Assembly (NCBI GenBank): GCA_023426435.1 | Contig: JAFAAS010000018.1 | Location: 3,490-67,489 of the forward strand | DNA length: 64,000 nt | Source of the DNA: Verrucomicrobiota bacterium | GTDB lineage: Bacteria > Verrucomicrobiota > Verrucomicrobiia > Opitutales > Opitutaceae | Direction of reading: 5' to 3' | Part shown: positions 10,068 to 29,799 of the stretch, piece by piece | Numbering within the stretch: the stretch's first letter is position 1 | Layout: every line of letters begins with the position of its first letter | The notes under the pieces: model-generated | Seen by the model: the letters and a program-made list of their open reading frames with translations, nothing else | Told to the model about the DNA's origin: nothing | Databases searched by the model: none | Program-made: the position numbers and the translations under genes

Positions 10068-10117
10068 TCGCGCCCCTTCGCGTCCCTTCGTGGTTAAAAG
10101 TCCCGGCTCGTTCGTCC

Positions 10118-11659: not shown

Positions 11660-11826
11660 CGTCGATCAGGGGTTCGCCGCGAACCAATCCAACCTCAACC
11701 GAACTTCAATCGAAACCCCGGATTCGTTCATCAGGTTGAAGCACGCCGCAGGTGGAGCCCGACGTCCCGTCGGGCTGATAACGTCACGTATCCAGTCCAG
11801 CCCCACGAGGACCTCGGGCTCCACCC

Positions 11827-13683: not shown

Positions 13684-13813
13684 CCGGCCTCGTCGGTCAG
13701 TTTCGTTCGTCTAGATGAACAAATGAGCGGCCGAGCACGCGAACCCGCCGCGCCACCTTGTTCTCCAGTCGGGCGCGTCTCTGCCCCGCCCCCGCCGCTA
13801 AACCCCTTCCCTC

Positions 13814-15121
13814 GTGCCTCCGCTCTACCGCCTCCGCTCCGTTCCCGTTTCAACGCTCATCGCGTGGGCCTTGATCACCCTCGGCTGCACCCTGCGTCTC
13901 GCGAATCCCTTCCTTCCGGGCCACAACCCGCTCGACCAACTCTGGAGCGATCCCGCCCGCCATTGGAACAACGCCACCGACCTCCTCGGACGCACACCCC
14001 TGCACGCGATCAACCAAATCGGCTACCAGGTGTGGCTCGCGATGATCGCGAAATTCACACTCAACATCCCGCCGCTCGTCGCCGCTTATGCCGGCCTGCT
14101 CAGCGTGGCGAACACGTGGATCTGGTATCGCTTCTTCCGCGAGTTCTTCCGGCTGAAACTCACTGCGCTGATCGCGTGGATCGTTCTGCTCTACTGGCCT
14201 TCGTGGTTCGGCGCGTTTCGACTCTTCATGTCCGAAACGCTCTTCATCCCGCTCATCGGCCTGAGCCTCTGGATGACCTGGCGCTGCAAACGCAAAGCCA
14301 CCGTCGGCTCCTTCATTGCCATGGGACTGTGCTGGACCCTCGCCGGTCTCACCCGCGGCGTCGCGATTCCCATCGCCGCCGTGGTGACCCTTTACCTCTG
14401 GATCCTCCAGCCGCAAAAATTCACAAGGGCGCTCGGGCTCGGTCTTCCACTGTGCGCGATCCTGCTCGCATGCGCGTATCGCACTCACGCGCTGACCGGC
14501 ATCTTCCATCCGCTCTCCTCCGGTCACTACGATTATTCCTACGCCGTTTCCGGCAAAAAGACGGTGCATCTGAATTTCCACGACAACGGCACGACTCGCT
14601 ACACGTATTGGTTCGGCAGTCCGTCGATGAACGAGCAGCCCTTTCGGCCGTTCTCCGATTGGACAACCCAACGAGACGGCGCGCTCAACTTCTCCATCGA
14701 TCTCAACCATCAACGCGAATCCTGGAAGCAAGCATTCGCCGCCGTCGCTGCGACCAATCCGTCCTGGTGGCGCTGGCTGCCCGAAAATCTGATCTTCCTC
14801 TTCTTCGGCAGTTCGTGGCCGGACAACAATCCCGCGTTCTTCGTCGATCGTCTCAACATCCAGCTTCGCTGGTTTTTCGCCCCGCTGTTCGTCGCCACGT
14901 TCGCGATCCTCTGGACTTGCCGAAACAAACGCCGCCACGACTCCGCGTTGCTCGCGCTCGTCCTGCTCACCTGGTTCGTCGTGCAGGGCCTCACGCCCAT
15001 CGTCCTCAACGAAGGCCGCTATCGAAAACCCGTCGAAGCCCTCGTGCTCTGCGTCCCCCTTCTGCTCTGGGAGCGAAAGCGAGCCGTGCGCGCCGAAGTC
15101 CAGTCGGCGAATGCAGCGTAA
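13814..15121 (+). CDS. Polytopic membrane protein, GT-C (ArnT/PMT-like) glycosyltransferase candidate
   Basis: Starts with GTG. Has at least 10 hydrophobic helices and a layout like GT39/GT83-type lipid-linked sugar transferases. No catalytic motif could be confirmed by eye. Confidence 0.45.
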   Translation: MPPLYRLRSVPVSTLIAWALITLGCTLRLANPFLPGHNPLDQLWSDPARHWNNATDLLGRTPLHAINQIGYQVWLAMIAKFTLNIPPLVAAYAGLLSVANTWIWYRFFREFFRLKLTALIAWIVLLYWPSWFGAFRLFMSETLFIPLIGLSLWMTWRCKRKATVGSFIAMGLCWTLAGLTRGVAIPIAAVVTLYLWILQPQKFTRALGLGLPLCAILLACAYRTHALTGIFHPLSSGHYDYSYAVSGKKTVHLNFHDNGTTRYTYWFGSPSMNEQPFRPFSDWTTQRDGALNFSIDLNHQRESWKQAFAAVAATNPSWWRWLPENLIFLFFGSSWPDNNPAFFVDRLNIQLRWFFAPLFVATFAILWTCRNKRRHDSALLALVLLTWFVVQGLTPIVLNEGRYRKPVEALVLCVPLLLWERKRAVRAEVQSANAA

Positions 15122-15178
15122 ACTCGAAAGGTCCGGGGAGCTCAGAGCGGTTCGTAAATCCCCCGTCCATACTGTTCG

Positions 15179-15254
15179 CCGCAAAGAGGCGCAAAAGGCG
15201 CAAGGACCCATGCCTCGTCGATTCATCTTTGCGCCTTCTATGCCTCTTTGCGGC
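15179..15254. repeat. Imperfect 29-nt inverted repeat (REP-like element) between convergent genes
   Basis: The left arm is GCCGCAAAGAGGCGCAAAAGGCGCAAGGA (15179-15207). The reverse complement of 15226-15254 is GCCGCAAAGAGGCATAGAAGGCGCAAAGA, giving 25/29 matches with an 18-nt spacer. Confidence 0.75.
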
Positions 15255-15333: not shown

Positions 15334-17856
15334 TCACGGAATCGCGAACGTAAGATCCAAACCGCTCCAGCTGCTGCTCGTGAGCGGACTGCTCTGGGTG
15401 TAGAGTGTCGTCCAGTTGGTGCCGTCGTTGGAGCCGGCGATCGTGAAGGTCGCCGGCGCGCGGTTCGCATCCGGCACGCGGATACGCACCGCCGTCGGCC
15501 TGACGGAAGTGCTGCCGAGGTTGAGCGCGAGATTGCCCGTCGTGCCCTGCAAATCCCAATAGCTCGAGGTCGCGGTGGAGTTGTCGTAGGCTTCCCACAG
15601 CGCCGTGCCCGTGCCGGTGATGTTCGCACTGTTTCCGCTGTAGTGAGGATTCGGATATGCCGTCGAGTTGACCATCCAGTCGATCTCGCCGATGCGGCCC
15701 CACGCTCCGCTCGTGCCCGAGTTTACCTGGAGACGGAATCGCGTATAGGTCGTGGCGGACGTGCCATTGGTCACCGCGACGGAATTGACCGTCACGCTGC
15801 CACTGCCCGAGAGCTTCTGCACCGTCACACTCGAGAGAAAGTTCGCCGGGAGCGTGAACGGGAACAGCGCCGTGCTTACGTTGCTGACTGCGCCTCCCGT
15901 GGTGACGGTGTGCGCCAGCGCGCCATGAACCAAAATCGCAAACGTGGCAGCGCCGCTCGTGGAATAGTTCACCTGGGCGTTGAAGTTTCCCCCGCTCGTG
16001 CTGCGGAACAGATACGAGGAGTGGTTGGTCACGCCGGTGATGGTGGCCGAACCAGTGGACGCCGCCTGGGCAATCTTCCACGCCGGCGAACAGGCCTGAT
16101 AGTTGGCGCCCGCGTAGGTGAAGGGCAGTGTCTGCCCGCTGTCCAGCACCGAGGCGGTATAGCTGGGTGCGTCGATGAGCGCGAGCGCGCGCGGGGTGTT
16201 GGTCGAGTGCGTGTCCGGGTGTATATAGCCGAAGCGATAATCCTGGTGCCAGACATAGCCGGTCTGGAAAGTGCCGCCCGCCTCCTCGAAAATTTCGTAG
16301 CTCTCGATCATCTCGTCATACATCCGGATATCGGAAAACGCCGGCTGCGCGAGCGGGTGGGCCACGCCGCTGCCCCGCGCATCGCCAAAATTCGGCATGC
16401 CTTCATAGCTTACGAAATGCACTCCGAAGGCCGCCCGCATTTTCGAGTTGAGCATCAATATGTTGTTTTTGTAGTCGGCCCGCACCATCTCGCCCGTGTT
16501 CCAGACGTTGTCGATCGTGGTGCCGGTGGCGGCGGAGCGATAGGTCGCCGGCCCCGCGCCCCAGAAGAAATAGGTGATCGGATGCGATTCGGTCAGCGTG
16601 TAATATGCGTTGGCCCAAGCCATGCCGTGCTGATCGTCGACTGCTTCGCGCTTGATTTGGTAGCACCAAAGCGGGCGCACTCGCGTCATCATCGCGCTGT
16701 CGCCGAAAACCGTCCGAAAAATCCGGCTCATCTCCACCGCCCGCCAGATCACATACCGAGCGCGCAGATCCCACCGCCTGGTGAAGATCGTGCTGGGCGT
16801 AGCCCAGCCATCGTGGTTGATGATATGATTTATATTGTTCGTCACCACCTGCTGGGCCTGCTCCAGCGCGTAGATGGATTGCGAGAAGGCGTAGTTATCG
16901 CCGTTGTTTTCGCCGCCGTTCCAGAGTTCGTTGCCGTATTCGACGTAGAGATTGAGGTTCGAATCGAGCGGCGGCCACACGGGGTTCGACTGCGTGGATG
17001 TATATGGATTCACGCCATCGCTGCCGTAGCGGAACGTCCGGGCCACCCGAGTCATGTAATCGGCATCCACCATCGCAGGCAGACAGATGTAGGCGTCGGT
17101 CTGGGTCGCGTTGGCGAACGCGATGATATACTCCCACGGCACCGACGTCGGTTTGTTCATGTTCGAGTTATAGGGATTCGGATGCTGACGGTTTTGGAAG
17201 CGGCCAGGCAGTCGGCGGGTGCTCCAGGTGGTCTCCGGGTTGGCGTTGATCGAAGAGGGGTCCATGTAGCGGACGATGTCGAACTGCGCGAACTGATCCC
17301 GGATCACGCGATCGACGATCTCCGTGGTTGCGTGCGACGTCGTCGAACCCGGCGAAATCGGGCGCATCAGCTTCACGTCGCGCACGCCGCCGGAGGTGTT
17401 GCTGAACAACAGGCGCAGATTCGTTTCGCCCGTCGAGGAAGCGAGCGAAAGCACGACAACGGAGGAGTTGGTCGACGCCGTGTAGGTATTGCTTTGCACG
17501 GTGATCGGCGCCGTCCCCTGCGCCGTGACGGTCGCCTGGCCCGTGAAATACAGGCGATAGGTGCCGGGGCGCGCATTGGGTTGGCCGGCCCACATCCAGA
17601 GACGCGCGTCCTGCGTGGGCCAGCCATTCGAGTCCACCGGCGCGGCGGACTCGGTGGTCGGCATCTGCCAGATGCGCTGCCCCGCCGTGTTTTGGACGAC
17701 GTCGGCCCACATCGGCGGCAGCCAGTCCTGCGACCAATGGATATTGATCGCCGCCACGCGCGGAGCCGCGTGCAGCGGCGTAGCGGCGACGGCAAGGATC
17801 GAACAGAAGACAAACAGCGAGCGAGCGCTCGCGAGCAGTTTGAGAAACGAGCTCAT
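15334..17856 (-). CDS. Secreted clan-GH-A-like hydrolase candidate plus beta-sandwich plus C-terminal F5/8 type C (discoidin/CBM32-like) domain
   Basis: The ATG at 17856 (MSSFLKLLASARSLFVFCSILAVAATPLHA) gives a signal peptide. Motifs are LYVEYGNELWN and VSYEGMPNFGD. The C-terminus is RFRLQV...IGEIDWMV...IAGSNDGTNWTTL, which is discoidin-like. It is a long-range paralogue of the 25883-27845 part of the giant gene. Confidence 0.75.
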   Translation of the reverse strand: MSSFLKLLASARSLFVFCSILAVAATPLHAAPRVAAINIHWSQDWLPPMWADVVQNTAGQRIWQMPTTESAAPVDSNGWPTQDARLWMWAGQPNARPGTYRLYFTGQATVTAQGTAPITVQSNTYTASTNSSVVVLSLASSTGETNLRLLFSNTSGGVRDVKLMRPISPGSTTSHATTEIVDRVIRDQFAQFDIVRYMDPSSINANPETTWSTRRLPGRFQNRQHPNPYNSNMNKPTSVPWEYIIAFANATQTDAYICLPAMVDADYMTRVARTFRYGSDGVNPYTSTQSNPVWPPLDSNLNLYVEYGNELWNGGENNGDNYAFSQSIYALEQAQQVVTNNINHIINHDGWATPSTIFTRRWDLRARYVIWRAVEMSRIFRTVFGDSAMMTRVRPLWCYQIKREAVDDQHGMAWANAYYTLTESHPITYFFWGAGPATYRSAATGTTIDNVWNTGEMVRADYKNNILMLNSKMRAAFGVHFVSYEGMPNFGDARGSGVAHPLAQPAFSDIRMYDEMIESYEIFEEAGGTFQTGYVWHQDYRFGYIHPDTHSTNTPRALALIDAPSYTASVLDSGQTLPFTYAGANYQACSPAWKIAQAASTGSATITGVTNHSSYLFRSTSGGNFNAQVNYSTSGAATFAILVHGALAHTVTTGGAVSNVSTALFPFTLPANFLSSVTVQKLSGSGSVTVNSVAVTNGTSATTYTRFRLQVNSGTSGAWGRIGEIDWMVNSTAYPNPHYSGNSANITGTGTALWEAYDNSTATSSYWDLQGTTGNLALNLGSTSVRPTAVRIRVPDANRAPATFTIAGSNDGTNWTTLYTQSSPLTSSSWSGLDLTFAIP

Positions 17857-18006
17857 GTTTAATGGGGTTGGGATTTCGGGAAGCTGGGAAAATGCTGCTG
17901 AAGGTGGAGCCCGACGTCCTCGTCGGGCGGGTTTGCGTGGTAGGGCGAGGCGTCTCGCCGAGCCGCGAGCATCCAACATGGCTCGCCAGGGACAGCTCGC
18001 TCCAGC

Positions 18007-19743
18007 TCACGGCACGAAGCGAATCGCGTCCGCGCAGGCGCGGTTCCCGTCGTTGGTGTTGGCGTCGATGACGACACTCGAACTGCTGTTCAATGTATGC
18101 CGTCCGAGGTGCACCCACGCGCCACCGCCAGTCTTCTGATTGACCGTGTAGTTCGTGTTGCCGCTCGCGTGATTGACGGTGTAGCGCACGCCGCTCGAGA
18201 GCCACGTCCAGTTCGTCGCGTAGCGCACATACACATCATACGAGCCGGCGAGATTCGGGCTGTAACGCGCCGTCGCGACACCATGGATCGACTGGTCATT
18301 GAAGGTGCGGAAATTCGCTCCGTGGTATCCGCCGCCGAGCGTTACGTTCCACCACGCGCCGATGAACGTCACCAACGACGAATCGTTGTCGACGATCACT
18401 TCGTTCGCGACGACTGGGGTAAATCGAACGGCGTCCGCGCACGCCCGCTGGCCGTCGCCTGTGTTGCCATCGACGACGACCGTCGAGTTGGCGTTTAACG
18501 TGTGCCGACCGAGCAACACCCACGTGCCGCCGCCGCTCTGCTGGTTCACCGGATACACCGCGCTGCCGCTCGCGTGATTCACCGTGTAGCGAACGCTGTT
18601 CGACGGCGTCGTCCAGCCGCTCGAATAGCGCACGTAAACATCATAAGTCCCGTTCGCAGTCGCAGGTGCGTAGGTGGCCGTCGCCACGCCGTAGCTTGCC
18701 TGATCGCTCACCGTGCGGAAATCAGCGCCCTGGAATCCGCTCCCCTCGGAGCGGTTCACCCACGCGCCGGTGTAGCTGAACTGCGGGTCGAGGTTGTCGA
18801 TCAGGATTTCGCCCGGATCCGTCCAGCGCATGCGACAGAGCCACACGCCGTCGTTGTTGTATCCGGCGACAAAATACTCGCCGTTGTGCTCGATCACCTC
18901 CGGCGCGTAATAGCCGTCGAATGAACCCGGCGTCATCTTGATGATCGGCTCGCCGTCGAAATCCATCGGATCCGCCGACGCCCACACGCTCATCTGCAGC
19001 CATTGGTAGTAGAGCCCGTTGCGCCACATCACGAACGGACTCTCCGGATTCACCACAGCGTTGACCGCGCTCAATCCGCTCCATGGGCCTTCGAGCACCG
19101 CGGCAGTGCGGGCGGCAACGTAGGCCGATGCGCCGCCCGTGCCGTTTTGCAGGAAGTAGGCATACCAGAGCCCGTCCACGCTGCGGTTATCGAGGATCAT
19201 CGTGTCGCGCGACATCGCGTAGAACGTAATGTCGCCGTCGAGGTCGTAATGCTGCGTGAAGTTCTTCCCGTCGGTGCTGATCAGGCAGTGCGCGCCGCCG
19301 CTGTTGTGAAACATATACCAGAGATTTCCGACGCGGAAACAGTGCGGCGCCTGCAATCTCCCCTGCGTGTAGCCCGGCGGACTCATGTCGGTCGTCCAAA
19401 AGATTCCCTGCGGCGTCCAATCCGCGCTTGTGAGACTCGTCGACTCCCAGCGATAGAAGAGCCGCGTGCTGCCGGGATAGGTCGTGTCGGCGATGCACGC
19501 AACCAGCTGCCAGGTGCCATCGGCGGCCTGATAGATCGTGAAGTCCTTCGTCATGTGAACGCCCAGATTGTTGTAGGGGCTCACATCCGGCCCGCGCGGC
19601 GCAATGCGCCACCAGCCGCCGTCAAGTCGCGGGACTTCGAGCGCGAACGAAACCGAGCAGAGGAAAACGAACAAAGATGCCAACGCGGTCCTTCCGCCCA
19701 AGACCGAGCGGCGACGAAAGTAAAACCAACCATTTGTAAGCAT
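18007..19743 (-). CDS. Secreted five-bladed beta-propeller (GH43/GH32-superfamily-like) protein with two C-terminal golvesin/CBM-like repeats
   Basis: The N-terminal half reads DFTIYQAADGTWQLVACI...LQAPHCFRVGNLWYMFHNSG...STDGKNF. The two C-terminal repeats of about 127 aa lie at roughly 18412-18807 and 18010-18400. Each ends in ...GNTGDGQRACADAVRFTP or ...NTNDGNRACADAIRFVP. Confidence 0.7.
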   Translation of the reverse strand: MLTNGWFYFRRRSVLGGRTALASLFVFLCSVSFALEVPRLDGGWWRIAPRGPDVSPYNNLGVHMTKDFTIYQAADGTWQLVACIADTTYPGSTRLFYRWESTSLTSADWTPQGIFWTTDMSPPGYTQGRLQAPHCFRVGNLWYMFHNSGGAHCLISTDGKNFTQHYDLDGDITFYAMSRDTMILDNRSVDGLWYAYFLQNGTGGASAYVAARTAAVLEGPWSGLSAVNAVVNPESPFVMWRNGLYYQWLQMSVWASADPMDFDGEPIIKMTPGSFDGYYAPEVIEHNGEYFVAGYNNDGVWLCRMRWTDPGEILIDNLDPQFSYTGAWVNRSEGSGFQGADFRTVSDQASYGVATATYAPATANGTYDVYVRYSSGWTTPSNSVRYTVNHASGSAVYPVNQQSGGGTWVLLGRHTLNANSTVVVDGNTGDGQRACADAVRFTPVVANEVIVDNDSSLVTFIGAWWNVTLGGGYHGANFRTFNDQSIHGVATARYSPNLAGSYDVYVRYATNWTWLSSGVRYTVNHASGNTNYTVNQKTGGGAWVHLGRHTLNSSSSVVIDANTNDGNRACADAIRFVP

Positions 19744-19800
19744 GGGGATGGTGCAGAGGCTGGTTGAAGCTCATCGGAAGGTTTTCTCCGCTGGAAAGCA

Positions 19801-19828
19801 GCACGCCGGCCGCGAAGGGCCGGCGTGC
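19801..19828 (-). terminator. GC-rich hairpin (11-bp perfect stem, 6-nt loop) 10 nt after the giant-gene stop
   Basis: The sequence is GCACGCCGGCC-GCGAAG-GGCCGGCGTGC. On the minus strand it is followed by TGCTTTCC, a weak T tract. Confidence 0.5.
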
Positions 19829-19837
19829 GCGTGAGGG

Positions 19838-20640
19838 TTACTCGCTGTCCGGTTGGACCAACGCGCCCTGGCCGTTGATCACCAATCGATCGCTGATCAC
19901 TTGTCCGTTCAACGTGCTGTTGCCGTTGATCGTCACAGTGCCGGACGGCGCTTCGACTTGGCCGTGAAGGTTGACGTTGCCATTCAGCGTCACACCGCCG
20001 TTCGCCACCCTCAACGTGAGCCACTCCGGATGATCGTTCGCACCGACGTTGCCGCTGAACGACACGCCTTGCGCGAGCGTGAGCATGACCGGTCCGACCA
20101 CCTGCACCGATGCGTTTCCGTTCACGACCAGGCCCTGCAGGTTGTAAACCGCCGGTTCCGTCGCGCCCGCCACACCCAGGATGATGCTGCTGTTGCCGTT
20201 GATCGTGATCGTGCCGTAAGTGCCCGCCGGAACCGTGCGCGTGCCGGCGTTGCCGTTCAGCGTCAGATTACGCACCTTGCTCCAGTTGCCGACGTTGTCG
20301 CTCGCTTTGTTGAGCGAGACATTCGTCGTCCCCGTCGGTGCTGGCGGCGCGGATACACTGGGCATCGCAATCGCATCGACACGACGCACCACATGCCGCA
20401 GCGCCGCGTTGCCATTGAGCGTGATGGTGTGATTCGACGGCGAGGCTTCGCCGCTCGCGTCAATCGTGCCGCCGTAAACGGGACGTCCATTCAGTCGCAC
20501 GGTCGGCGTGCCGCGGACGAGCAGGTCGCCAGAAACCCACGCGTTGCCATTCAGCGTCGTGCTTTCGGCATTCAACACCTGCACCGATCCGTCGAGTCCG
20601 CCATTGAGCGTCGGCGCGCGACGCACGAGCGCCGTCACCG
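19838..20640 (-). other. C-terminal (L/I/V)NGN-repeat tail, predicted beta-solenoid
   Basis: Recurrent TLNGNAWVSG, ITLNGNAAL, LTLNGNAGT, ITINGNSSI, VVNGNASV, VTLNGNVNL, VTINGNSTLNG and VINGQGAL. No PEP-CTERM or other sorting signal is visible at the end. Confidence 0.5.
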
Positions 20641-23600
20641 TGATCCGCAAGGTCTCGATCGCCGCACCGCTGTAGCTCGGCGAATCGATCGTCGCCTCGA
20701 CTTCATACGTGCCGGGCAGCGTCGGCGCTTCACTGCCGCCGCCATACGTGATCGTCACCGGCAAGCCCGCAGGCACTGTTGTCACACTGACGGACTTCGG
20801 CGTCCCGTCGTAAGCCTGGCGCAATCCGTGGAACGTGATCGTCGCCGTCGCTTCCGCGATCGTCAGCGTGCCCGTCGCCGAGCCGACATGATTCGGATCG
20901 GTCACCACCGCGTTCACCGTATAGCTGCCGACCTCCGAAGGCGCGGTGCTGCTGCCGTCGTAGGTCAACACGACCGCGAGTCCGGCCGGTGTCGTGGTCG
21001 CCGACGCAGCCTTGGGCGAGCCATCATAGGTATGGCTGAGATTGCCCAACGAAACCACCGCCACCGCCGGCGTGATCGTCAGCGTGCCCGTCGCCGAACC
21101 CGTGTAATTCGGATCGGCAATCGTCGCGACAACTGCATACGTGCCGACATTCGTCGGCGGCGTGCTGCTGCCGTCGTAAGTCACGTCGACATCCAATCCC
21201 GTCGGCGCGGTGGCAACGCTGACTGCGCGCGGCGCACCCGAATAGGTTTGCGAGAGATTGCCCAGCGTCACGCTCGCCTGCCCTGCGTCGATGACGAGCG
21301 TGAGCGATTGCGTGGCTTCGTCCGACGGATCTTCGACGCTGTCGCTATCCGCGACGCGAACCACGACGTTGCTTGTTCCCGCCGCAGTCGGAACGCCCGC
21401 GATCACGCCTTCCGTCGAGAGGGAAAGCCCGTCCGGCAGACTGCCCGACGCGATGCTCCACACGAGCGCACCATTCCCGCCGCTCGCGGAAAGCGTCTGC
21501 TCGTAGGCGACGCCCACCGTGCCATTGTCGAGCGTGGTCGTGCTGATCGTTGGCGCGGAGTTCGGCGAACCGGCGAGCCGCACCGAACCGAACAACAACG
21601 GATTCGACCACGCCTGATCGGCGGTGCCGAACCACGCGATCTTGCCGTCGCGCGTGGTGGAGCCCGGCGTGTCGTTGTCGTTGATCATCACTTCAAAGCC
21701 GATCACGTCACCGGCGGCCGGCGTCACGCCGAGCGTGCTCCACGGGAAGTGGAACTCCGCCGTATAACCACTCGCGGTCGTTTCGCTCGCAACCGTGATG
21801 CCCGCGAGCGACGGATTTCCGGACGCGGCTTCGAGCGCGCCGTTCCAACGATAGACGTATTGGCCGACGCCGGTTGAGTAGAACGTCTGCTTCGCGTTCG
21901 TCGCATCGATGTAGAGATCGACGCTGTCGAACATCCACTCGTTCGGATTCGAACCGGTGGTATCGGCCACCAGCACGTCATCCGTGACGTCGACAAACAC
22001 GTAGAGGCCGCTGGCGTCCCAAGTCGCGCGATACGTCGCACTGAGATCGGCCGGGCCACTCACCGTGCCGAGGCTGACATTGCCCAACGCGTGAGCCGTC
22101 GCCGCCGACCAGGCCTCGTCCGCCCCGACGCCATCGACGACGATCTCGCCGGTGGCGTGCTGAATCGAAATTTCGGATACCGACAAGGTGGCCGTTTCGC
22201 TCTGCACGCTGCCCGCCCCGTTCGAGGCAACCACATGGTAGGTGCTCCCATTCAGGGAGAGGTCGAGATCGCTCAACGTAAGCGTCGCCGCGGTTTCTCC
22301 GACGATCGGTTCGCCGTTGCGATACCACTGATACGTGATCGGCGGAGAACCGATGGCGAGGATCTGCAGCGTGACATTCGCGCCGCTGCCGACCGATGCG
22401 CCTTGCGGCTGCGTCACGATGATCGGCACCGACCCGGTGGCGCTGTCCGGATTCAGCTCAATCCAGTCCGTCAGCGCGCGATGCTTGTAGCTGAGCAGAT
22501 CGGGATAGCCGACCGAAGGCTTGCTGCCAAACGCGCGCAACGGCGACCAGCCTTGAGGATAGTTGTAATGCACGAACACCTCGAAGTAAGGCGCGATCGC
22601 GTCGAGGTAGTGCTTGTAGGCGGAATACATCACCGGATTCCGCGACGCGGCGTCGGCGAAATTCACGATGTGCTGTCCGCCTTCATAAGCGATGAGCGGA
22701 ATGCCGAGCGGCGACCAGACATTGTAATGCGTCTGGACGCGATTCATCACCGTCGTGTCGATGTCGTTGATCATTTGATCGAGGATGTCCGGCGCGCCGC
22801 CGTTGAGGCTGCCCCCGAAGTAGGGAGCGATTGAATACACATCGATCGTGCGACCGGTGGGGTTCGTCACCGGATCCGCGAGCGCGTCGCGGTGGAGCTT
22901 CGGGCTCTGCGACGCTCCGGCCTGACCAGCGAGAACATAAACGATCTGGTTGTTCGCATCGGCGCCGAAACCCGCGTCGAACGCGGCCTGCAGCTCCAAA
23001 GTGCGCTTCACGTAGAACCGCGCCCGGGCGAGCGAGGTGTCGTTCTGGCTGTAGGTCTCGGCGACGTTCTGGTGCAAGCCGAGCGCGAGACCTTGATCGC
23101 TCGCGTAAATCGCCTGCGCGAAATCGGCGTTCCAGACTTCGTTCGAATACTCGATGTAGATCTTCCGCTCCGGCTCGAGGTGCTGCTTGATGAGCGCGCC
23201 AAGTTGCGTCGCGTAGGCGTCGTTCACCGCGTGCGGAATCGTGAACCACATGTCGGCATCGAGGATGTTGCAGAGGCGAATCATCCACTCGACCGCCACT
23301 CCATGCGCGGCGCGGATGTTTTCCTCCTGGAAGTTCGGATTCACCGTCTGATTCTGATCGTCGGGCTGTTTCCGCTCCGACCAGTCGACCGTCCAGTTGT
23401 TGTTGGTCGCAACCCAGTCCATGAAACGCAGGACCTTGAACGGACGAATGTCGTCGAGGAACGCGTCGCTGAACGGGTTGCTGTTTTCGTAGTTCGCCCA
23501 TTCGGCGGCGAAGTTCACACCCTCGCGCCACATGCCGGCAGTGTCGCTCCACAGACCTGTGCCCAACTGCATCGATTTCACGGCAGGCTCGCCCGCGCCG

Positions 23601-26600
23601 GTGGTGAGTTGAACCGGCGTGCTCGCGGCGGACACGTTACCAAGGCCGTCGGTCGCAGTGATCGTCACCGTGTAAGTCGACTCCGGCGAGAAGCCGTGGA
23701 GCGTGATGTCCGTCGAAGTCGACGTGGTCCAGAACTCGTCGTTCACATAGATCGTGTAGATCGAGACGCCCGAGCCCGCGTCCGTGGACGGCGTCCAGCT
23801 CACGTTCGCCGTGAGGTCGCTCGTCGAGCTCACCGCCACGTTGCTGGGAACGGTCGGAGGATCCGTATCCAAATTTCCCGGAACGCTCGCGAACTCGAAC
23901 GTGCCCGCGAGGACCGACGGCGGTCCCGCGACGACGACTTCGGGATAGTCGCTTGAATTCAAGCCGGTGCGCTGAATCAGCGGCGTCCACGCCGTGCCAT
24001 CGTTCGAACCTTCGAGGCGAAATGCCGAAGCGAGGATGTAGCTCGGGATTTCGAGCCGCACACCGGTGATGTAAACCGGACCGTTGTTGAAGCGGACGGT
24101 CATCTCCTGCGGATTCACGTTGGCGACGTTGTTCGCGTCGGCGGTGTTGATATACCAATGCGAGTTGACGTTGCGGTCGAAGACGAACGCCGGGCGATCC
24201 TGCGCATTGATGTTAGCTGTGCTGCTGCTGATCGTGTAATCGGCATTGCCGGTGTTCGAGGTCGGCACCGTGAGCGGCAATTGGTTCTCGCCGGAGAGCA
24301 ATCGCATCTCGCGGAGGAAAACGCGTCCGGCATTCGTGCCGCTCGTCACGGCCGAGCCGTCGATCCAAAGTCGGAGGTATTGGTAGGGCTGGGCCACAGG
24401 AAGACCGCCCGAGGAAGAGCTGGAACTCGAGGAGCTTGAACTCGAAGAAGACGAACTCGACGAACTGGAAGAGCTGCTCGAACTCGAGGACGAAGAACTG
24501 CTCGAACTCGAAGACGAGCTGCTTGAGCTGGAGGACGACGAACTCGAGCTGCCACCGGGAGGCGGCGTGAATTCATACGTCGCCTGATCGACGCCGTCGA
24601 CGAGCGCGAAGTCGGGCAACGCGTCGTCGTCTTCGACGAGCGTCGTCCAGTTCGCGCCGTCGTTCGATCCGGAGATGCGCAGACCCGTGAGATTGTCGCT
24701 CCACGAGGCGCGCGAGATGCGGACGCCATTGGGCGAGATCGCGGTTTCGCCCAGATCCGCCGTGATGTGAACGGGCAACGGAGTCGTGCCGGAACTGATG
24801 AAGAAGAACGTCTGGTTCGATGCGTTGTTATGATCGAACACGCGCCACGCATTCCCGGGGAACGCGTAGTTGGACGTCACCACCACGCCCGCGGAGTTGT
24901 TGGACGTAAGCGGGGTCGTCGGATAACGCGTGCCGTCCACGAGCCATTCGATTTCGCCGATCTGAAGCTGGCCATTGCCCGCGAGCGCGGTCGCTTCGAA
25001 ACGCAGGTAGCGGTAACTCTCCGGTTCCGGCGGCGTGACGATGCCCGGCACATAACCCATCCGCGAGAGATCCATCTGGATGCTGCCGGTCGTGTTCGCG
25101 ACAAAGTAAACGCCGACCGCGTCCACGATCTCGCTCGTCGGCGCGATGGGCGCAGTGAACTCGACGGCGAAGTTGTTGCCGCCATTCGCCGTGAAATCCC
25201 ATTCCTGCCAGGTGGTCGCGGTCGTCGGCGCGAGCGGCCAGTCGCTGTCCGCCGTCGCAAACGATTCGACGGAGACGTAATACTTCCCGCCCGCGCGCAC
25301 GACTTTGTGAAACGCGCCTCCGGTGCCGGCGACCACGCGGGTCGACAACTCCAACTGCACGGTGTCGAACATGCCGGCGTCGCTCACCGGCCACAGCGCC
25401 ACCGCATGAGAGCGTTTCGCACCCGCGACGGCCGATTGAAAGCGAATCGCTTCGGGCGTGTCGTTGCGCAGCACCAGCGCAAGCACCGTCGAGCCAGGCG
25501 CAGGCGAAACATCGACGTCCATCACGAATCCGCCAAACGCGGCCGGCGCCGTGGCGCCAAAAGCGAGATCGCTTGTGCTGAAAGCGAGCAGTTCGCGCGT
25601 GTCGTTCGCGCCCGCATTGCCAAGTCCAAGATCGAGATCCGATGACACCGTGCCGTTCACCTGAACGTTGCTCGTCGTGTAGGCATTGAGCGTGCCGTCG
25701 AAGACGTGCGTCACCGTCACCGGCCCGCCACTCGACGAAGACGACGAGCTGCTGCTCGACGAAGAACTGGACGACGACGAACTCGAGGAGCTCGAACTGC
25801 TCGAGGACGATGAACTGCTCGAAGACGATGAGGACGAACTGCTGCTGGAGGAGCTCGAGGACGAGGAACTCGACGAAGACGACGTGCCGTCGGAGATCTC
25901 GACCGCGTTGACGGTGACGTCGCCGGTGCCGGCGATCTTCTGAACCGTCACACCGGAGAGGAAGTTCGCCGGGAGCGAGAATGCGTAGGCACTCGTCGAG
26001 GCATTGGAAACGGCGCCGGGCGTGTTGATGATTTCAACCAATTCTCCGTCGACCAGAATCGCGAAACTCGCGGCGCCTGAAGTCGAGTAGTTGATCGTCG
26101 CCGTGTAGTCGTCGCCCGCGACGCTGCGCATGAGATAACTCACGCGACGGCCGACGGCGGTGAGGACATTGGTGCCGTTGAACGGACTCACCGACCAGTA
26201 ATTGGTGCCCGTGAACGTGAACGGCAGCGTTTGCCCGATGTCGAGCGGACGCGCGTTGTTCGAGAGGCTGGCGTTGTAAAGCGCCATCGCGCGCGGCGTC
26301 TGATCCGAGTGCGTGCTCGGATCGATATGCCCGAAGCGGAAGTCTTGATGCCAGACGTAGGTCGTTTGGAAAACGCCACCGGTCTCCTCGAAGATCTCGT
26401 AGCTCTCGATCATCTCGGTGTAGAGCCGCGGATCGTAGAACGCCGGCTCCGCGAGCGGATGGGCCGCGGTCGAACCTTGCGGATCGCCGAACGCCGGACC
26501 GCCTTCGTAGGTGACGAACGGGATGCCGTAGGACGCGATCATGCGCGCATTGTTGGTCATCCGCGTCTTGAAGGTTTCGCGGTCCATCTGGCCGGTGGTC

Positions 26601-29410
26601 CAGACGCTGTCGATCGTCGCGCCCCCGGCCGCCGCACGGTAGTTGGCCGGACCCGCCCCCCAGAAGAAGTAACTCGGCGCAAGCCCTTCGGACGACGCGT
26701 AGTAGCCGCTGATGAAGTCGAGCCCATGAACGTCGTCGGTGTTGTTCTGCTTCACCTGATAACACCAGAGCGGGCGCACGCGCGTCATCATCTGGTCGGG
26801 AAACACCGCGCGGAACAAGCGGCTCATTTGCGACGCCCGATACGCGGAGTAACGCAGGCGCAGGTTGCCGCCATTGCTGCTGACCTGTCCCGTGGAGGCG
26901 ATGAATCCGTCGTAATTGAGCGGGTGATTCAGATCCGCGGTGACGAGCGCGATGCCGCGATTCGCGACGTAGGTGCTCTGCGGGAACGCGCCGCCCGTAT
27001 TCCAATTTTCATTACTGTATTCGACATAGAGTTTAAGCTCGGGATTGAGCGGCGCCCACACTGGATCCGCCTGCGGCTCCGTGTAGGGGTTCACGCCGTC
27101 GCTGCCGTAGCGGAACATCTGAGCGACCTTCGTGATGTAGTCGTCATCCGCCATCGCGGGGAGGCAGATGTAGGCGTCGGTCATCGTCGCATTCGCGATG
27201 GCGATGACGTATTCCCACGCGACGCCCGTCTCGCGCATGTTGGAGCCGGCAACGCTGTAGGAGATCCGGCGATTCTGGAACTTGTCCGGCAGCCGGCGAT
27301 CGCTCCACGCGATCTCCGGATTCGCGTTGATGTTGCTCGGATCCATGTAGCGGATGATGTCGAGCCGCGCGAGCTGGTCGCGCATGACGCGATCGACCAC
27401 TTCGCCGGGCGCGTGCGATTCCGTCGCGCCGGGAGCGATGGGGCGCATCAGCTTCACGTTGCGCACGCCGCCATTTGTATTCGTGAGGCTCATACGGAGT
27501 TCCGTGGTCGGGGCGATGAGCGAGAGGGTGACGACGGACGAATCGGTGTTCGCATCGTAAACATTGCTCTGCACGACCATCGCCGGACTCGTGAACGCAA
27601 CCGTCGCCTGCCCTTCAAAAGTCAGCGTGTAGGTGCCGAGACGCGGGTTGGGTTGATTGTGCCAGAGCCAGATCCGCGCATCGGCGGTCGGCCATCCGTC
27701 GGCGTCGACGGGAACCGGATCCTCGGTGCTCAACTGCGCCCAGATGCGAATGCCCGCGGTGTTTTGAAGCGCGTCGGCGAGAATCGGGGGCAGCCAGTCG
27801 CGCACCCAGTGGAGATTCGTCGCGGCAATGCGCGGCAGTCCGGTTTCGGGCGTCGGCGCGGGGAGCGGAACGACATTGACCGTCGCTTCGTCCGTGAAAC
27901 CGCCGTCGTCCGAGGTCACGCGGATCGTCGCGCTGCCGGTGGCTACGCCCGTGACACGACCGTCCTCGGTCACGGTTGCCACGCTCGGGTTCAAGCTCGT
28001 CCAGGTCACGTTCTTGTTGGCGGCGGCCTCGGGTTCCACCGTGACCGCGAACGGAACGGTTTGCCCGACGATCACATCGCGCGAGTCCGGCAAAATCGTC
28101 ACACTCGTGACCAGCGCCGGAACTACCTCAATGGCGGCTTGCGCGGTGAAATTCCCCTCCTCCGTCGTCACCGTGATCGTGGCGGAACCGACGGCGAGGG
28201 CGGTGACCAGGCCGTTGGCGTCGACCGTCGCAACCTCTTCGTCGGAACTCGACCACGTGACGTTCTTGTTGATTGAACTGCCGGGCTGGACCTCGGCGGT
28301 GAGTTGTCCGGTGTAGGAAACCTCGAGCGGAAGTTCGGTCGGCGACACGGTGACGCCCGTGACGGTTGGGAGTGTGACCGTGACGTCGGACGCGGCGGTG
28401 AAACCACCGTCCTCCGTCGTAACGGTGATCGCAGCCGTTCCAACGGCGACGGCGGTGACGGTGCCGGACGCGTCGACGGTGGCGACGTTTTCATCGGAAC
28501 TGCTCCACGTGACGTTCTTGTTCCGGGCGCTCTCCGGCACGATCTGCGCTTCGAGGATCCGCGAGTTTCCGGGCAACAGGAAGAACTCGGTCGGGGTCAC
28601 GCTTACATCGGACACGGCCGAGGACGCCCACCCCATGCGCGAGATGTCGTGCACGATCGCACTGTTCGAAGTCGCGACAAAATAGACCCCGATTGCGTCG
28701 ACCGTCGCCGCCGTGGGCGCAACCGGCGACGAGAACGTCACGGCGAAATTATTGCCGCCATTCGCCGTGAAATCCCACGGCTGCCATGTCGTGTTCGCCG
28801 TGGAGGAAAGAGGCCAATTGCCGTTGGTCGCGGAAAAACTCTCGACCGACACGTAATATTGTCCGGCCGCCCGCACGACCTTGTGGAACTGCCCGCCGCC
28901 GCCGAGCGTGACGCGGGTATCGAGGGTCAACAGCAGATCTTCGAACGCCGTATCGGTTGCGGTGGGCCACACGATGACGCCGTGGGCGCTTTTGGCGGCG
29001 GCGACATTGGCGTTGAAGCGAACGACGTCGGGATTGTCGTTTCCGCGCAACGCGATCGACGCGAGGAATTGATTCGGGGCCGTTTCGACATCGAAGCCCA
29101 TCGAGAAGCCGCCGAGACTCGCGGGGGCCGCACCTCCGAAGGCGAGCGTATCGAAATATCGTAACACGCGCGTGTCGTTCGCGCCGGCCGTGCCGAGTCC
29201 CAGATCGAGGCCGGTCGTCGCGGTGCCGCTGAGATTGGGATTCGACGTGCCGGTGTAGGCGTTGAGCGTGCCGTCGAACACGTAGGTTTGTGCGACGGCT
29301 TGGGCAGCGATGAACACGAGGGCCAGCACGGCGCCGGCGGAGCGGAAGAACGTGGCGCGCCGGCGGAGAGGCGCACACGAGCGATGATGATCGAAGGATG
29401 CGGTTTTCAT
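19838..29410 (-). CDS. Giant secreted multidomain carbohydrate-active/adhesin-like protein (3190 aa)
   Basis: The ATG at 29410 (MKTASFDHH...AVLALVFIAAQAVAQ) gives a signal peptide. The order from N to C is:
- novel domain A;
- 3 Big_2 domains;
- GH-A-like module 1;
- poly-Ser;
- domain A copy 2;
- discoidin;
- poly-Ser;
- discoidin;
- FN3;
- GH-A-like module 2;
- Ig (I-set-like);
- CBM9-like;
- He_PIG-like;
- 4 MBG-like domains;
- NGN-repeat tail. Confidence 0.85.
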   Translation of the reverse strand: MKTASFDHHRSCAPLRRRATFFRSAGAVLALVFIAAQAVAQTYVFDGTLNAYTGTSNPNLSGTATTGLDLGLGTAGANDTRVLRYFDTLAFGGAAPASLGGFSMGFDVETAPNQFLASIALRGNDNPDVVRFNANVAAAKSAHGVIVWPTATDTAFEDLLLTLDTRVTLGGGGQFHKVVRAAGQYYVSVESFSATNGNWPLSSTANTTWQPWDFTANGGNNFAVTFSSPVAPTAATVDAIGVYFVATSNSAIVHDISRMGWASSAVSDVSVTPTEFFLLPGNSRILEAQIVPESARNKNVTWSSSDENVATVDASGTVTAVAVGTAAITVTTEDGGFTAASDVTVTLPTVTGVTVSPTELPLEVSYTGQLTAEVQPGSSINKNVTWSSSDEEVATVDANGLVTALAVGSATITVTTEEGNFTAQAAIEVVPALVTSVTILPDSRDVIVGQTVPFAVTVEPEAAANKNVTWTSLNPSVATVTEDGRVTGVATGSATIRVTSDDGGFTDEATVNVVPLPAPTPETGLPRIAATNLHWVRDWLPPILADALQNTAGIRIWAQLSTEDPVPVDADGWPTADARIWLWHNQPNPRLGTYTLTFEGQATVAFTSPAMVVQSNVYDANTDSSVVTLSLIAPTTELRMSLTNTNGGVRNVKLMRPIAPGATESHAPGEVVDRVMRDQLARLDIIRYMDPSNINANPEIAWSDRRLPDKFQNRRISYSVAGSNMRETGVAWEYVIAIANATMTDAYICLPAMADDDYITKVAQMFRYGSDGVNPYTEPQADPVWAPLNPELKLYVEYSNENWNTGGAFPQSTYVANRGIALVTADLNHPLNYDGFIASTGQVSSNGGNLRLRYSAYRASQMSRLFRAVFPDQMMTRVRPLWCYQVKQNNTDDVHGLDFISGYYASSEGLAPSYFFWGAGPANYRAAAGGATIDSVWTTGQMDRETFKTRMTNNARMIASYGIPFVTYEGGPAFGDPQGSTAAHPLAEPAFYDPRLYTEMIESYEIFEETGGVFQTTYVWHQDFRFGHIDPSTHSDQTPRAMALYNASLSNNARPLDIGQTLPFTFTGTNYWSVSPFNGTNVLTAVGRRVSYLMRSVAGDDYTATINYSTSGAASFAILVDGELVEIINTPGAVSNASTSAYAFSLPANFLSGVTVQKIAGTGDVTVNAVEISDGTSSSSSSSSSSSSSSSSSSSSSSSSSSSSSSSSSSSSSSSSSSSSSSSSSSSGGPVTVTHVFDGTLNAYTTSNVQVNGTVSSDLDLGLGNAGANDTRELLAFSTSDLAFGATAPAAFGGFVMDVDVSPAPGSTVLALVLRNDTPEAIRFQSAVAGAKRSHAVALWPVSDAGMFDTVQLELSTRVVAGTGGAFHKVVRAGGKYYVSVESFATADSDWPLAPTTATTWQEWDFTANGGNNFAVEFTAPIAPTSEIVDAVGVYFVANTTGSIQMDLSRMGYVPGIVTPPEPESYRYLRFEATALAGNGQLQIGEIEWLVDGTRYPTTPLTSNNSAGVVVTSNYAFPGNAWRVFDHNNASNQTFFFISSGTTPLPVHITADLGETAISPNGVRISRASWSDNLTGLRISGSNDGANWTTLVEDDDALPDFALVDGVDQATYEFTPPPGGSSSSSSSSSSSSSSSSSSSSSSSSSSSSSSSSSSSSSSSSSSSSSSSGGLPVAQPYQYLRLWIDGSAVTSGTNAGRVFLREMRLLSGENQLPLTVPTSNTGNADYTISSSTANINAQDRPAFVFDRNVNSHWYINTADANNVANVNPQEMTVRFNNGPVYITGVRLEIPSYILASAFRLEGSNDGTAWTPLIQRTGLNSSDYPEVVVAGPPSVLAGTFEFASVPGNLDTDPPTVPSNVAVSSTSDLTANVSWTPSTDAGSGVSIYTIYVNDEFWTTSTSTDITLHGFSPESTYTVTITATDGLGNVSAASTPVQLTTGAGEPAVKSMQLGTGLWSDTAGMWREGVNFAAEWANYENSNPFSDAFLDDIRPFKVLRFMDWVATNNNWTVDWSERKQPDDQNQTVNPNFQEENIRAAHGVAVEWMIRLCNILDADMWFTIPHAVNDAYATQLGALIKQHLEPERKIYIEYSNEVWNADFAQAIYASDQGLALGLHQNVAETYSQNDTSLARARFYVKRTLELQAAFDAGFGADANNQIVYVLAGQAGASQSPKLHRDALADPVTNPTGRTIDVYSIAPYFGGSLNGGAPDILDQMINDIDTTVMNRVQTHYNVWSPLGIPLIAYEGGQHIVNFADAASRNPVMYSAYKHYLDAIAPYFEVFVHYNYPQGWSPLRAFGSKPSVGYPDLLSYKHRALTDWIELNPDSATGSVPIIVTQPQGASVGSGANVTLQILAIGSPPITYQWYRNGEPIVGETAATLTLSDLDLSLNGSTYHVVASNGAGSVQSETATLSVSEISIQHATGEIVVDGVGADEAWSAATAHALGNVSLGTVSGPADLSATYRATWDASGLYVFVDVTDDVLVADTTGSNPNEWMFDSVDLYIDATNAKQTFYSTGVGQYVYRWNGALEAASGNPSLAGITVASETTASGYTAEFHFPWSTLGVTPAAGDVIGFEVMINDNDTPGSTTRDGKIAWFGTADQAWSNPLLFGSVRLAGSPNSAPTISTTTLDNGTVGVAYEQTLSASGGNGALVWSIASGSLPDGLSLSTEGVIAGVPTAAGTSNVVVRVADSDSVEDPSDEATQSLTLVIDAGQASVTLGNLSQTYSGAPRAVSVATAPTGLDVDVTYDGSSTPPTNVGTYAVVATIADPNYTGSATGTLTITPAVAVVSLGNLSHTYDGSPKAASATTTPAGLAVVLTYDGSSTAPSEVGSYTVNAVVTDPNHVGSATGTLTIAEATATITFHGLRQAYDGTPKSVSVTTVPAGLPVTITYGGGSEAPTLPGTYEVEATIDSPSYSGAAIETLRITVTALVRRAPTLNGGLDGSVQVLNAESTTLNGNAWVSGDLLVRGTPTVRLNGRPVYGGTIDASGEASPSNHTITLNGNAALRHVVRRVDAIAMPSVSAPPAPTGTTNVSLNKASDNVGNWSKVRNLTLNGNAGTRTVPAGTYGTITINGNSSIILGVAGATEPAVYNLQGLVVNGNASVQVVGPVMLTLAQGVSFSGNVGANDHPEWLTLRVANGGVTLNGNVNLHGQVEAPSGTVTINGNSTLNGQVISDRLVINGQGALVQPDSE
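20640..21290 (-). other. Four tandem MBG-like (YxG..P ... TYdG...P..vGtY.V.a.i.dpNY.GsatgtLtI) domains (approximate bounds)
   Basis: Four repeats of ...LSQTYSGAPRAVSVATAPTGLDVDVTYDGSSTPPTNVGTYAVVATIADPNYTGSATGTLTITPA-type sequence. Confidence 0.65.
21565..22180 (-). other. CBM9-like carbohydrate-binding domain of the giant protein (approximate bounds)
   Basis: Contains GEIVVDGVGADEAWSAA..., ATWDASGLYVFVDVTDD, DSVDLYIDA and GYTAEFHFPWSTLG...GDVIGFEVMINDND. Confidence 0.6.
22440..23590 (-). other. GH-A-like catalytic module 2 of the giant protein (approximate bounds)
   Basis: Contains VLRFMDWVATNN, VEWMIRLCNILDADMWFTIPH, KIYIEYSNEVWN and IPLIAYEGGQH. This is the same motif order as module 1 but much more divergent. 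Confidence 0.65.
23610..23875 (-). other. Fibronectin type III domain of the giant protein (approximate bounds)
   Basis: PPTVPSNVAVSSTSDLTANVSWTPSTDAGSGVSIYTIYVNDEFW...YTVTITATDGLGNVSAAS is a classic FN3 pattern. Confidence 0.75.
24410..24550 (-). repeat. Poly-serine linker 2 (47 consecutive Ser codons)
   Basis: Counted from the DNA. It is flanked by PPPGG and GGLPVAQ and uses mixed Ser codons. Confidence 0.9.
25730..25882 (-). repeat. Poly-serine linker 1 (51 consecutive Ser codons)
   Basis: Counted from the DNA. It is flanked by DGT and GGPVTV and uses a mixture of TCN and AGY codons. Confidence 0.9.
25883..27845 (-). other. GH-A-like catalytic module 1 plus beta-sandwich of the giant protein (approximate bounds)
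   Basis: Contains LYVEYSNENWN and VTYEGGPAFGD. Long stretches are shared with the 15334-17856 product (TRVRPLWCYQ, YFFWGAGPA.YR, MIESYEIFEE.GG.FQT.YVWHQD.RFG). Confidence 0.7.
27870..28615 (-). other. Three tandem Big_2 (bacterial Ig-like group 2) domains within the giant protein (approximate bounds)
   Basis: Three repeats of the form V.P....L..G.....A.V.P..A.NKNVTW(S/T)S.......VD..G.VTA.A.G.A.ITVTT. Confidence 0.8.
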
Positions 29411-29799
29411 TTTAATGGGGGCTTCGCCGTGGGTTCGGAACGTCGCGCGCGCCCGGCCAAGGCGGCGTGAAGCACAGGCAGCGGCGGCGCTCACGGGGAG
29501 CGTTCGATGGGCGGAAAAAGAAGAAACGGGGCAGCAGCCGCACGGGCTGCAGGCGGGCCAAAACGGGGGCGAATCAGGGCGCTCCGCGTCAGGGGCATTC
29601 TAGACCGGTCAAATAGGAGGGCGATTTAGAGAAGGCGCGCTGGAGGAACAACGGGGCGGGGGGCGCAGCGACGAAGATGTCGCGAGGGGCGGAAAAGCGG
29701 GACGCTAACAATCGGAGTCCAAAAACCTGGAAGTAACAGTATCCTAACTTTGGAGACGAACGCGGGGTGCGGGTTGAACATGGGAACGGGAGAGCGGCA

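Follow-up and report, generated by a model that had tools for sequence, protein, structure and literature searches.

A 64,000-nucleotide stretch of a Verrucomicrobiota genome (family Opitutaceae; assembly GCA_023426435.1, contig JAFAAS010000018.1, positions 3,490 to 67,489; hereafter the window) encodes three related protein modules, one in a stand-alone gene (gene A) and two (modules B and C) within a single giant gene. We consider it likely that these modules are secreted, retaining glycoside hydrolases (GHs) of the clan GH-A type, and that they belong to a large sequence family in which no member has been characterised. The three are homologous to one another, the models (gene A and module C) are (beta/alpha)8 barrels with two glutamates in the catalytic positions, and the catalytic part matches no family in Pfam, NCBIfam or the Protein Data Bank (PDB). 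Hydrolytic activity and a retaining mechanism would follow by analogy with clan GH-A, while what we propose about the substrate and about a division of labour with neighbouring genes is speculative.

Both genes lie on the minus strand of the window, which has a GC content of ~62%. Gene A, the giant gene and the parts of each that concern us here are as follows:

15334-17856, minus strand: gene A, 840 amino acids, stop codon included (open reading frame and translation; the source-contig gene call is identical)
17767-17856, minus strand: gene A signal peptide, residues 1-30 (MSSFLKLL...PLHA/A; cleavage site placed by reading the sequence)
17347-17766, minus strand: gene A barrel strand 1 (VAAINIHW) and a beta-sandwich of ~80 residues inserted in the strand 1-helix 1 loop, residues 31-170
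16147-17346, minus strand: remainder of the gene A (beta/alpha)8 barrel, residues 171-570, with R196 (within IVRYMD), N309-E310 (within YVEYGNELWN; E310 codon 16927-16929) and E485 (within SYEG; codon 16402-16404)
15757-16134, minus strand: gene A CBM6-like beta-sandwich, residues 575-700, containing NYSTSGAA.FAILV
15337-15744, minus strand: gene A discoidin-like (F5/8 type C) domain, residues 705-840
19838-29413, minus strand: giant gene, ~3,190 amino acids from M28, in an open reading frame that reaches a GTG at 29494 (translation, Pfam, gene call)
25883-27859, minus strand: module B, giant residues 546-1204, with the composite architecture of gene A residues 24-699; predicted acid/base E829 (codon 27008-27010) and predicted nucleophile E997 (codon 26504-26506)
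22445-23578, minus strand: module C, giant residues 1973-2350, a barrel only, from the larger subfamily; R2023 (within VLRFMD), N2118-E2119 (within YIEYSNEVWN; E2119 codon 23138-23140) and E2271 (within AYEGGQH; codon 22682-22684)

Residues of the giant protein are counted from the GTG at 29494; the source-contig gene call comprises 3,190 amino acids, so the start is likely to be M28 at 29413. For gene A we use the start at 17856, not the upstream ATG at 17979, in agreement with the independent source-contig gene call. N-terminal signal sequences can be read in both proteins. The gene A product thus runs from its signal peptide through barrel strand 1, the inserted beta-sandwich and the (beta/alpha)8 barrel to the CBM6-like and discoidin-like domains.

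A first-pass annotation, made by reading the sequence, had described gene A and part of the giant gene as collinear for roughly 650 amino acids, with about half or more of the positions identical. BLASTP aligned gene A residues 24-699 with giant residues 546-1204 (385 identities in 678 positions, 57%; E = 0), and all of the conserved blocks that had been singled out (TRVRPLWCYQ, YFFWGAGPA.YR, MIESYEIFEE.GG.FQT.YVWHQD.RFG, GQTLPF and NYSTSGAA.FAILV) lie in that alignment. The divergent third copy placed at about 22440-23590 was also recovered, at 22445-23578: module C aligned with the central ~200 amino acids of gene A at 23% identity (BLASTP, E 3e-13), was matched by profile, and keeps the same order of motifs, namely (L/I)R(F/Y)MD, V.WE...N....D....(I/L)P, (I/V)EY(G/S)NE.WN and YEG. 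Hidden Markov models (HMMs) built from the homologues of each family picked up the remaining copies (E 1e-32 to 1e-42); module B matched the HMM of the gene A subfamily with a domain E of 1.8e-213. When the A and C subfamily profiles were compared using hhalign, they aligned over 323 columns, which is the whole barrel (probability 100%, E 4.6e-57). These sequence comparisons establish clear homology of the two subfamilies along the entire barrel. Scans of all six frames using tblastn and the HMMs revealed no fourth copy within the window.

Gene A and module B form one subfamily (A, or A/B), and module C belongs to a larger, barrel-only subfamily (C). Members of the A/B subfamily carry a beta-sandwich after strand 1, a loop of ~18 residues (RYGSDGVNPYT...) after helix 3 and a CBM6-like domain at the end of the barrel; profile comparison showed that module C has neither the inserted sandwich, nor the CBM6-like domain, nor the 18-residue loop. 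The homology behind the proposed 650-residue catalytic module therefore held, but not its unity: the unit is a barrel with an insertion at strand 1, followed by a CBM6-like domain, and what the third copy has in common with the other two is the barrel alone.

We used AlphaFold to predict the structures of the mature gene A protein (predicted local distance difference test (pLDDT) 83, predicted template modelling score (pTM) 0.81) and of module C (pLDDT 90.5, pTM 0.91). The gene A model contains an eight-stranded barrel; in mature numbering, DSSP assigned a strand at residues 5-8, then the sandwich strands at 54-134 (pLDDT above 90), seven further strand/helix units up to ~540, a second beta-sandwich at 549-667 and a poorly modelled C-terminal domain. 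Module C was predicted as a clean single barrel with eight strands. To each query we aligned homologues of ~26-40% identity, 58 for gene A and 65 for module C. R166, N279, E280 and E455 (gene A, mature numbering) were invariant in the first alignment, and the equivalent Arg, Asn-Glu and Glu were invariant in the second, the last of these being E312 in query numbering. The Asn-Glu pair directly follows strand 4 (residues 273-277 in the gene A model, 153-157 in that of module C), the second Glu directly follows strand 7 (450-453 and 308-310, respectively) and the invariant Arg maps to the end of strand 2 in both models. In the C subfamily, strand 3 is in addition followed by a His and strand 6 by a Tyr, residues that we take to correspond to clan GH-A signature residues.

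Retaining glycosidases of clan GH-A are defined by Asn-Glu after strand 4 together with Glu after strand 7, and all three copies keep the pair of glutamates (E310/E485 in gene A, E829/E997 in module B and E2119/E2271 in module C). The clan GH-A arrangement, which had been proposed from the NE...E motif order, is thus reproduced in the models, and the structure predictions gave TIM barrels that Foldseek placed among clan GH-A enzymes. As modelled, the modules have the barrel fold, the strand-4 Asn-Glu and the strand-7 Glu of the clan. On this basis, the Glu of the strand-4 Asn-Glu (E310 in gene A; E829 and E2119 in the giant protein) would act as the general acid/base and the strand-7 Glu (E485; E997 and E2271) as the nucleophile of a double-displacement reaction, and the linkage cleaved would most probably be beta-D-glycosidic or its stereochemical equivalent.

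We next consider where the modules stand among known families, for which we searched Pfam (2025), NCBIfam (2026) and the PDB (2026). For the two window proteins, Pfam identified accessory domains only (Big_2, fn3, I-set, CBM9, MBG and discoidin), with no catalytic-domain match at E <= 0.01; among 65 family members, no GH model matched even at E <= 1. NCBIfam returned nothing relevant at E <= 0.1. The catalytic part, whether as single sequences or as either profile, had no match at E <= 10 in 177,635 PDB sequences (phmmer, hmmsearch). The earlier statement that the modules could not be placed in a known GH family accordingly stands for these three resources, in which no HMM of an established GH family matched. 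We also found no sequence similarity to a solved GH member, nor a template modelling (TM) score above 0.7 with recognisable identity to one, in a comparison meant to include GH50, GH86, GH157, GH158, GH164 and GH167, whose presence in the PDB set is unconfirmed.

Foldseek comparison of the module C model with the PDB gave TIM-barrel glycosidases for all of the top 50 matches, nearly all from clan GH-A (GH51, GH79, GH53, GH26, GH5 and GH1); identities were 10-14%, TM values 0.4-0.57 and the lowest E 2e-8. The best neighbour was the GH51 structure 6d25 (E 2e-8, TM 0.53-0.57), GH79 was represented by 3vny, 5bwi and 7pr9, and the highest TM of all, 0.57, came with 10% identity. Similarity of this order is what one would expect for members of separate families within one clan. 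For the complete gene A model, Foldseek matched GH5-CBM6, GH2, GH30, GH26 and GH10 structures at low TM because the query is multi-domain; single-domain module C gave clean results. The C-terminal part of the 650-residue unit was identified by sequence, with positions 572-690 of the A-subfamily profile matching 8zvk (E 4.6e-11), 2y8k, 5la2 and 5g56 (~1e-7) and 1uxz; together with the beta-sandwich in the model, this marks it as a CBM6-like, putatively sugar-binding domain.

Among these neighbours, GH51 (alpha-L-arabinofuranosidases; 6d25, 2vrk) and GH79 (beta-glucuronidase/heparanase) share with module C the barrel, the Asn-Glu on strand 4 and the Glu on strand 7, and are its best Foldseek matches (E 2e-8 to 1e-5, probability 1.0). 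However, module C is only 10-14% identical to them, with TM 0.47-0.57 and a root mean square deviation of 6-7 A, and has no sequence, profile or Pfam match to either family; GH51 and GH79 also carry a C-terminal beta-sandwich, which module C does not. The GH5_34 arabinoxylanase CtXyl5A (2y8k, 5g56, 5la0), the top match to the whole gene A model, resembles gene A in having a GH-A barrel followed by a CBM6. It differs in that the gene A barrel has neither a Cellulase (PF00150) match nor sequence similarity to it, in that the whole-model TM is ~0.2-0.3, and in that gene A has an additional beta-sandwich inserted after strand 1.

Several other candidates were compared and rejected. GH148 was founded on EngU, a metagenomic beta-glucanase of clan GH-A for which Pfam gave no assignment at the time of its discovery (PMC5725463). 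Its barrel is interrupted by a CBM4 between strand 4 and helix 4, its motifs are INNEN and VTEYN, and it has weak similarity to GH42 (PMC5725463). EngU is a precedent for an initially unassigned clan GH-A barrel with an inserted beta-sandwich, but at the level of motifs and published description it does not correspond to the modules, which have EY(S/G)NE.WN and YEG(G/M), an insertion after strand 1 and no GH42 Pfam match. GH168, an endo-1,3-fucanase family acting on a sulfated glycan, uses the catalytic pair D172/E243 of the GH29/GH107-like type, whereas the modules have NE...E; this comparison is with the published residues. The modules have no match to GH140 (PF13204), the relevant model for a newly reported GH140-like agarase family, although a neighbouring gene in the window does have one. 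Finally, the modules show no similarity to PDB entries of GH86, the family resembled by a Paenibacillus agarase. In the literature, neither the sequence motifs nor the Pontiella locus-tag prefix led to a relevant paper.

These results leave the strongest alternative, that the modules are ordinary members of an existing, characterised CAZy GH family for which there is no Pfam or NCBIfam model and no solved structure; GH147, GH169 and GH111 are examples, as would be any family founded between 2023 and 2026. In 2021, GH71, GH96, GH111, GH147, GH148, GH151, GH157, GH168 and GH169 were TIM-barrel families without structures, GH-A-type families are still being founded, and our assignment searches covered Pfam, NCBIfam and the PDB rather than CAZy/dbCAN. 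Against this, a GH-numbered family of more than 10,000 clusters would usually have a Pfam or NCBIfam model or be reflected in source names, and GH148, GH168 and the GH140-like agarases mismatch on motifs, catalytic pair and Pfam. We consider this alternative unlikely, though it deserves to be taken seriously.

The size of the family bears directly on that argument. In a set of 1.84 billion representatives, the C-subfamily profile matched 10,702 clusters (50% identity) at E <= 1e-3 and 5,121 at E <= 1e-30, and the source names were all either 'hypothetical protein' or derived from accessory domains only. That this is a large clan GH-A-type family (>10,000 clusters, many bacterial phyla) with neither a CAZy number nor a characterised member is, in our judgement, an evenly balanced proposition. 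A scan of species genomes identified at least 557 loci in Verrucomicrobiota, Gammaproteobacteria, Burkholderiales (Sphaerotilus, Malikia, Comamonas badia), Paenibacillus, Ktedonobacteria, Gemmataceae, Cyanobacteria, Acidobacteriota, Armatimonadota and others, from bacteria of soil, freshwater, sludge and compost. The accessory domains of relatives include CBM6/35, malectin, PA14, ricin and type IX secretion system (T9SS) tails. The closest relative of gene A in the scan, from a Puniceicoccaceae metagenome-assembled genome (MAG), is 50% identical, and this stand-alone gene sits among housekeeping genes.

Many of the top family matches (P0241-P0375) are 2,000-3,300 residues long and contain 2-5 matched stretches, either separate domains or split matches, and several barrel copies per giant protein may be common in the family. 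A Bacteroidota locus (L002, 4893-19223) contains four paralogues of ~1,000 amino acids with fn3 domains and a T9SS tail, three in tandem and the fourth beyond one gene on the opposite strand, adjoining genes for GH2, GH28, a sugar kinase and a sugar transporter. One of the four (10001-13063; P0040) was confirmed as an A-subfamily member, and the other three are putative members, judged by their matching size and domains.

Turning to the gene context, the locus in the window contains four sulfatases (two within 8205-11659, the others at 51581-53101 and 55165-56622), three TonB-dependent receptors, an SSF transporter, UxuA, two LacI regulators and a beta-helix protein, together with GH43-like, GH78, GH140-like and GH36-like genes. 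The genes closest to the modules are:

18007-19743, minus strand: gene between the giant gene and gene A, with Golvesin_C (PF25275, E 1.4e-44) and an N-terminal domain related to a GH43-like protein
29842-33528, minus strand: TonB-dependent receptor directly upstream of the giant gene (Pfam Plug)
8205-10121 and 10118-11659, minus strand: two adjacent S1-type sulfatases, the nearest to the modules (Pfam Sulfatase, E 9.5e-38 and 2.6e-61)

The CBM9, discoidin and sulfatase surroundings that had been noted by eye were corroborated by Pfam. Unusually, the sulfatase at 8205-10121 is fused at its C terminus to HEAT repeats (PF13646, residues 502-578). The N-terminal ~300 residues of the 18007-19743 product match the protein encoded at 36505-38619 (33% over 326 amino acids, E 7e-40); this domain occurs twice in the latter, where the second copy alone weakly matches Pfam GH43.

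Orthologues of the giant gene were found in two related genomes. On a compost-metagenome contig (L089) it is intact and 85% identical over 3,192 amino acids. In MAG GCA_023416735.1 (L004, 10001-19458; L005, 611-10068) it is called as two overlapping genes of 961 and 2,191 amino acids, the break lying inside the module B barrel and resulting either from a frameshift or from misassembly. Beside the giant gene, the genes for a TonB-dependent receptor, an SSF transporter, UxuA, a GH43-like protein and GH78 form a block that is conserved in the orthologous loci, and the receptor next to the giant gene is 91-94% identical in L004 and L089. It probably imports released oligosaccharides. On the other side, a 618-amino-acid ICMT/PEMT-family membrane protein and a gene of ~435 amino acids (11827-15226) neighbour the giant gene in all three related genomes; the orthologue of the ~435-amino-acid gene weakly matches PMT_2 glycosyltransferases.

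This arrangement suggests a working model for the locus. The modules, borne on extracellular proteins loaded with CBM6-like, discoidin, CBM9 and Ig-like domains, would break down a complex polysaccharide outside the cell; the fragments would then enter via the adjacent TonB-dependent receptor and the SSF transporter and would be processed further by the GH43-like and GH78 enzymes, the sulfatases and the UxuA pathway. The substrate is possibly a glycan that contains rhamnose and uronic acid and is partly sulfated, because GH78, UxuA and sulfatases occur here and in the Pontiella and Draconibacterium loci described below; bacterial exopolysaccharides are another possible candidate.

We therefore examined whether such neighbours accompany the family, by calling open reading frames in 80 A/B-subfamily and 83 C-subfamily loci and comparing them with the window proteins using BLASTP. 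None of the 80 A/B-subfamily loci contained a sulfatase, GH78 or GH43 within 8 kb, while sulfatases were found in 3 and GH78 in 4 of the 83 C-subfamily loci. GH78 and a sulfatase were called near the C-subfamily gene of Pontiella desulfatans, and a Draconibacterium SusC/D locus with a C-subfamily member has both. On these counts, we rejected a sulfatase/GH78/GH43 neighbourhood as a family trait. The suggestion that the modules act on a sulfated or otherwise unusual glycan consequently agrees with this sulfatase-rich locus but not with any family-wide association (0/80, 3/83), and it is on this one locus that the sulfated-glycan reading rests. All-against-all clustering of the neighbours gave no recurrent family in more than 7 loci, and the substrate probably differs between family members.

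The neighbours that did recur in the A subfamily, mainly in Burkholderiales, were a Wzx-like flippase, a Wzy-like protein, GT2 and GT4 glycosyltransferases and WecB-type transferases, named by reading representative sequences. One A-subfamily member (P0011) lies inside a Wzz/Wzy/Wzx/glycosyltransferase exopolysaccharide cluster; members in clusters of this kind were seen at L003 (1-23591) and also at L019, L063 and L073. This suggests that, in those organisms, such members process the cell's own exopolysaccharide. Hydrolases such as PslG (GH39, clan GH-A) and BcsZ are encoded in the Psl and cellulose synthesis clusters, and the A-subfamily members inside Wzx/Wzy-type synthesis clusters are placed likewise. 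We detected no sequence relationship to the PslG-type enzymes, however, and the copies in the window are accompanied by TonB-dependent receptors and further GHs, in what looks like a catabolic locus.

Could the modules in the window instead target the cell's own surface polysaccharide or exopolysaccharide, trimming it, controlling its chain length or releasing it, and not an external glycan used as a nutrient? The position of P0011, the fact that the only recurrent neighbours in the 80 loci are the biosynthetic types listed above, and the PMT_2-like membrane protein and ICMT-family protein conserved downstream of the giant gene here would all be in keeping with such a role. Each of the biosynthetic neighbours is nevertheless found in at most 6 of the 80 loci, and the giant gene is flanked by the TonB-dependent receptor, SSF, UxuA, GH43-like and GH78 genes both here and in the two orthologous loci. 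Moreover, the window has LacI regulators, LacI also flanks Verrucomicrobiota relatives, and the many carbohydrate-binding modules (CBMs) on these proteins are typical of foraging enzymes. We regard a role on the cell's own glycans as improbable for this locus.

Some of the observations above, and a few more, weigh against our proposal that the modules are retaining clan GH-A-type hydrolases of an uncharacterised family. The family, checked against Pfam, NCBIfam and the PDB, may already hold a GH number. The conserved downstream neighbours of the giant gene are not catabolic, and the family has no conserved neighbourhood that would point to a substrate. Placement of the catalytic residues was judged from strand order in the models. 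Gene A has YEGM beside the predicted nucleophile where the family consensus is YEGG; this departure would also suit barrels that are catalytically dead and serve as carbohydrate-binding or structural domains, but we find this highly implausible, because the three copies and the 58 and 65 homologues, at ~30% identity, all keep the Asn-Glu, the strand-7 Glu and the Arg of strand 2 unchanged, as expected of an active site under selection.

The three related genomes also inform the history of gene A. Both gene A and the adjoining 18007-19743 gene are missing at this position in GCA_023416735.1 (L004/L005) and in L089, where the giant gene abuts the 435-amino-acid gene and the ICMT-family gene. Gene A shows the same 57% identity whether it is compared with module B of the neighbouring giant protein or with module B of the orthologous giants, which argues that it is an old paralogue rather than a recent copy, and an orthologue of gene A at 87% identity exists elsewhere. 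Its discoidin-like domain matches Pfam PF22633 at E 3.1e-5, under the curated cut-off, and is 33% identical (E 1e-11) to residues 1493-1626 of the giant protein, the first discoidin domain there; AlphaFold confidence in this region of gene A is low. From these sequence relationships, gene A seems to have arisen long ago by partial duplication of the giant gene, as a copy of module B plus a discoidin domain.

The first half of the giant protein consists of the signal peptide, an unassigned domain (X1), three Big_2 domains, module B, a poly-serine linker and a repeat of X1; the second half consists of a discoidin domain, a poly-serine linker, a discoidin-like domain, fn3, module C, an Ig domain, CBM9, three MBG domains and C-terminal repeats. 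X1, of ~225 residues and with no Pfam match, occurs at 28619-29290, ahead of the Big_2 repeats, and at 25040-25720, after module B (residues ~69-292 and ~1259-1485); the copies cross-align at 56% identity (tblastn of the giant protein against its orthologue in L004/L005). The uninterrupted poly-serine linkers, of ~50 residues each (25727-25882 and 24395-24562), divide the giant protein into blocks. Its C-terminal ~260 residues (~2961-3218; 19841-20614), after the three MBG domains, consist of LNGNA/VNGN-type repeats that Pfam does not match; they might form a beta-helical anchor.

Taken together, our findings point to a real GH-A-type family that is probably uncharacterised, and which we see as a solid lead for enzyme discovery rather than a surprise. 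As the fold and the chemistry are conventional, its value lies in enzyme discovery and annotation, not in new concepts. If the family is truly unclassified, ~10,700 clusters now labelled 'hypothetical' (Verrucomicrobiota, Bacteroidota, Planctomycetota, Burkholderiales, Cyanobacteria, Chloroflexota, Paenibacillus and others) would escape genome and metagenome profiling based on carbohydrate-active enzymes. In that case, biochemical work on gene A or module C would establish a new GH family, perhaps one of novel specificity, and a single characterisation of this kind would give a name to all members and could reveal an unrecognised glycan-degrading activity.

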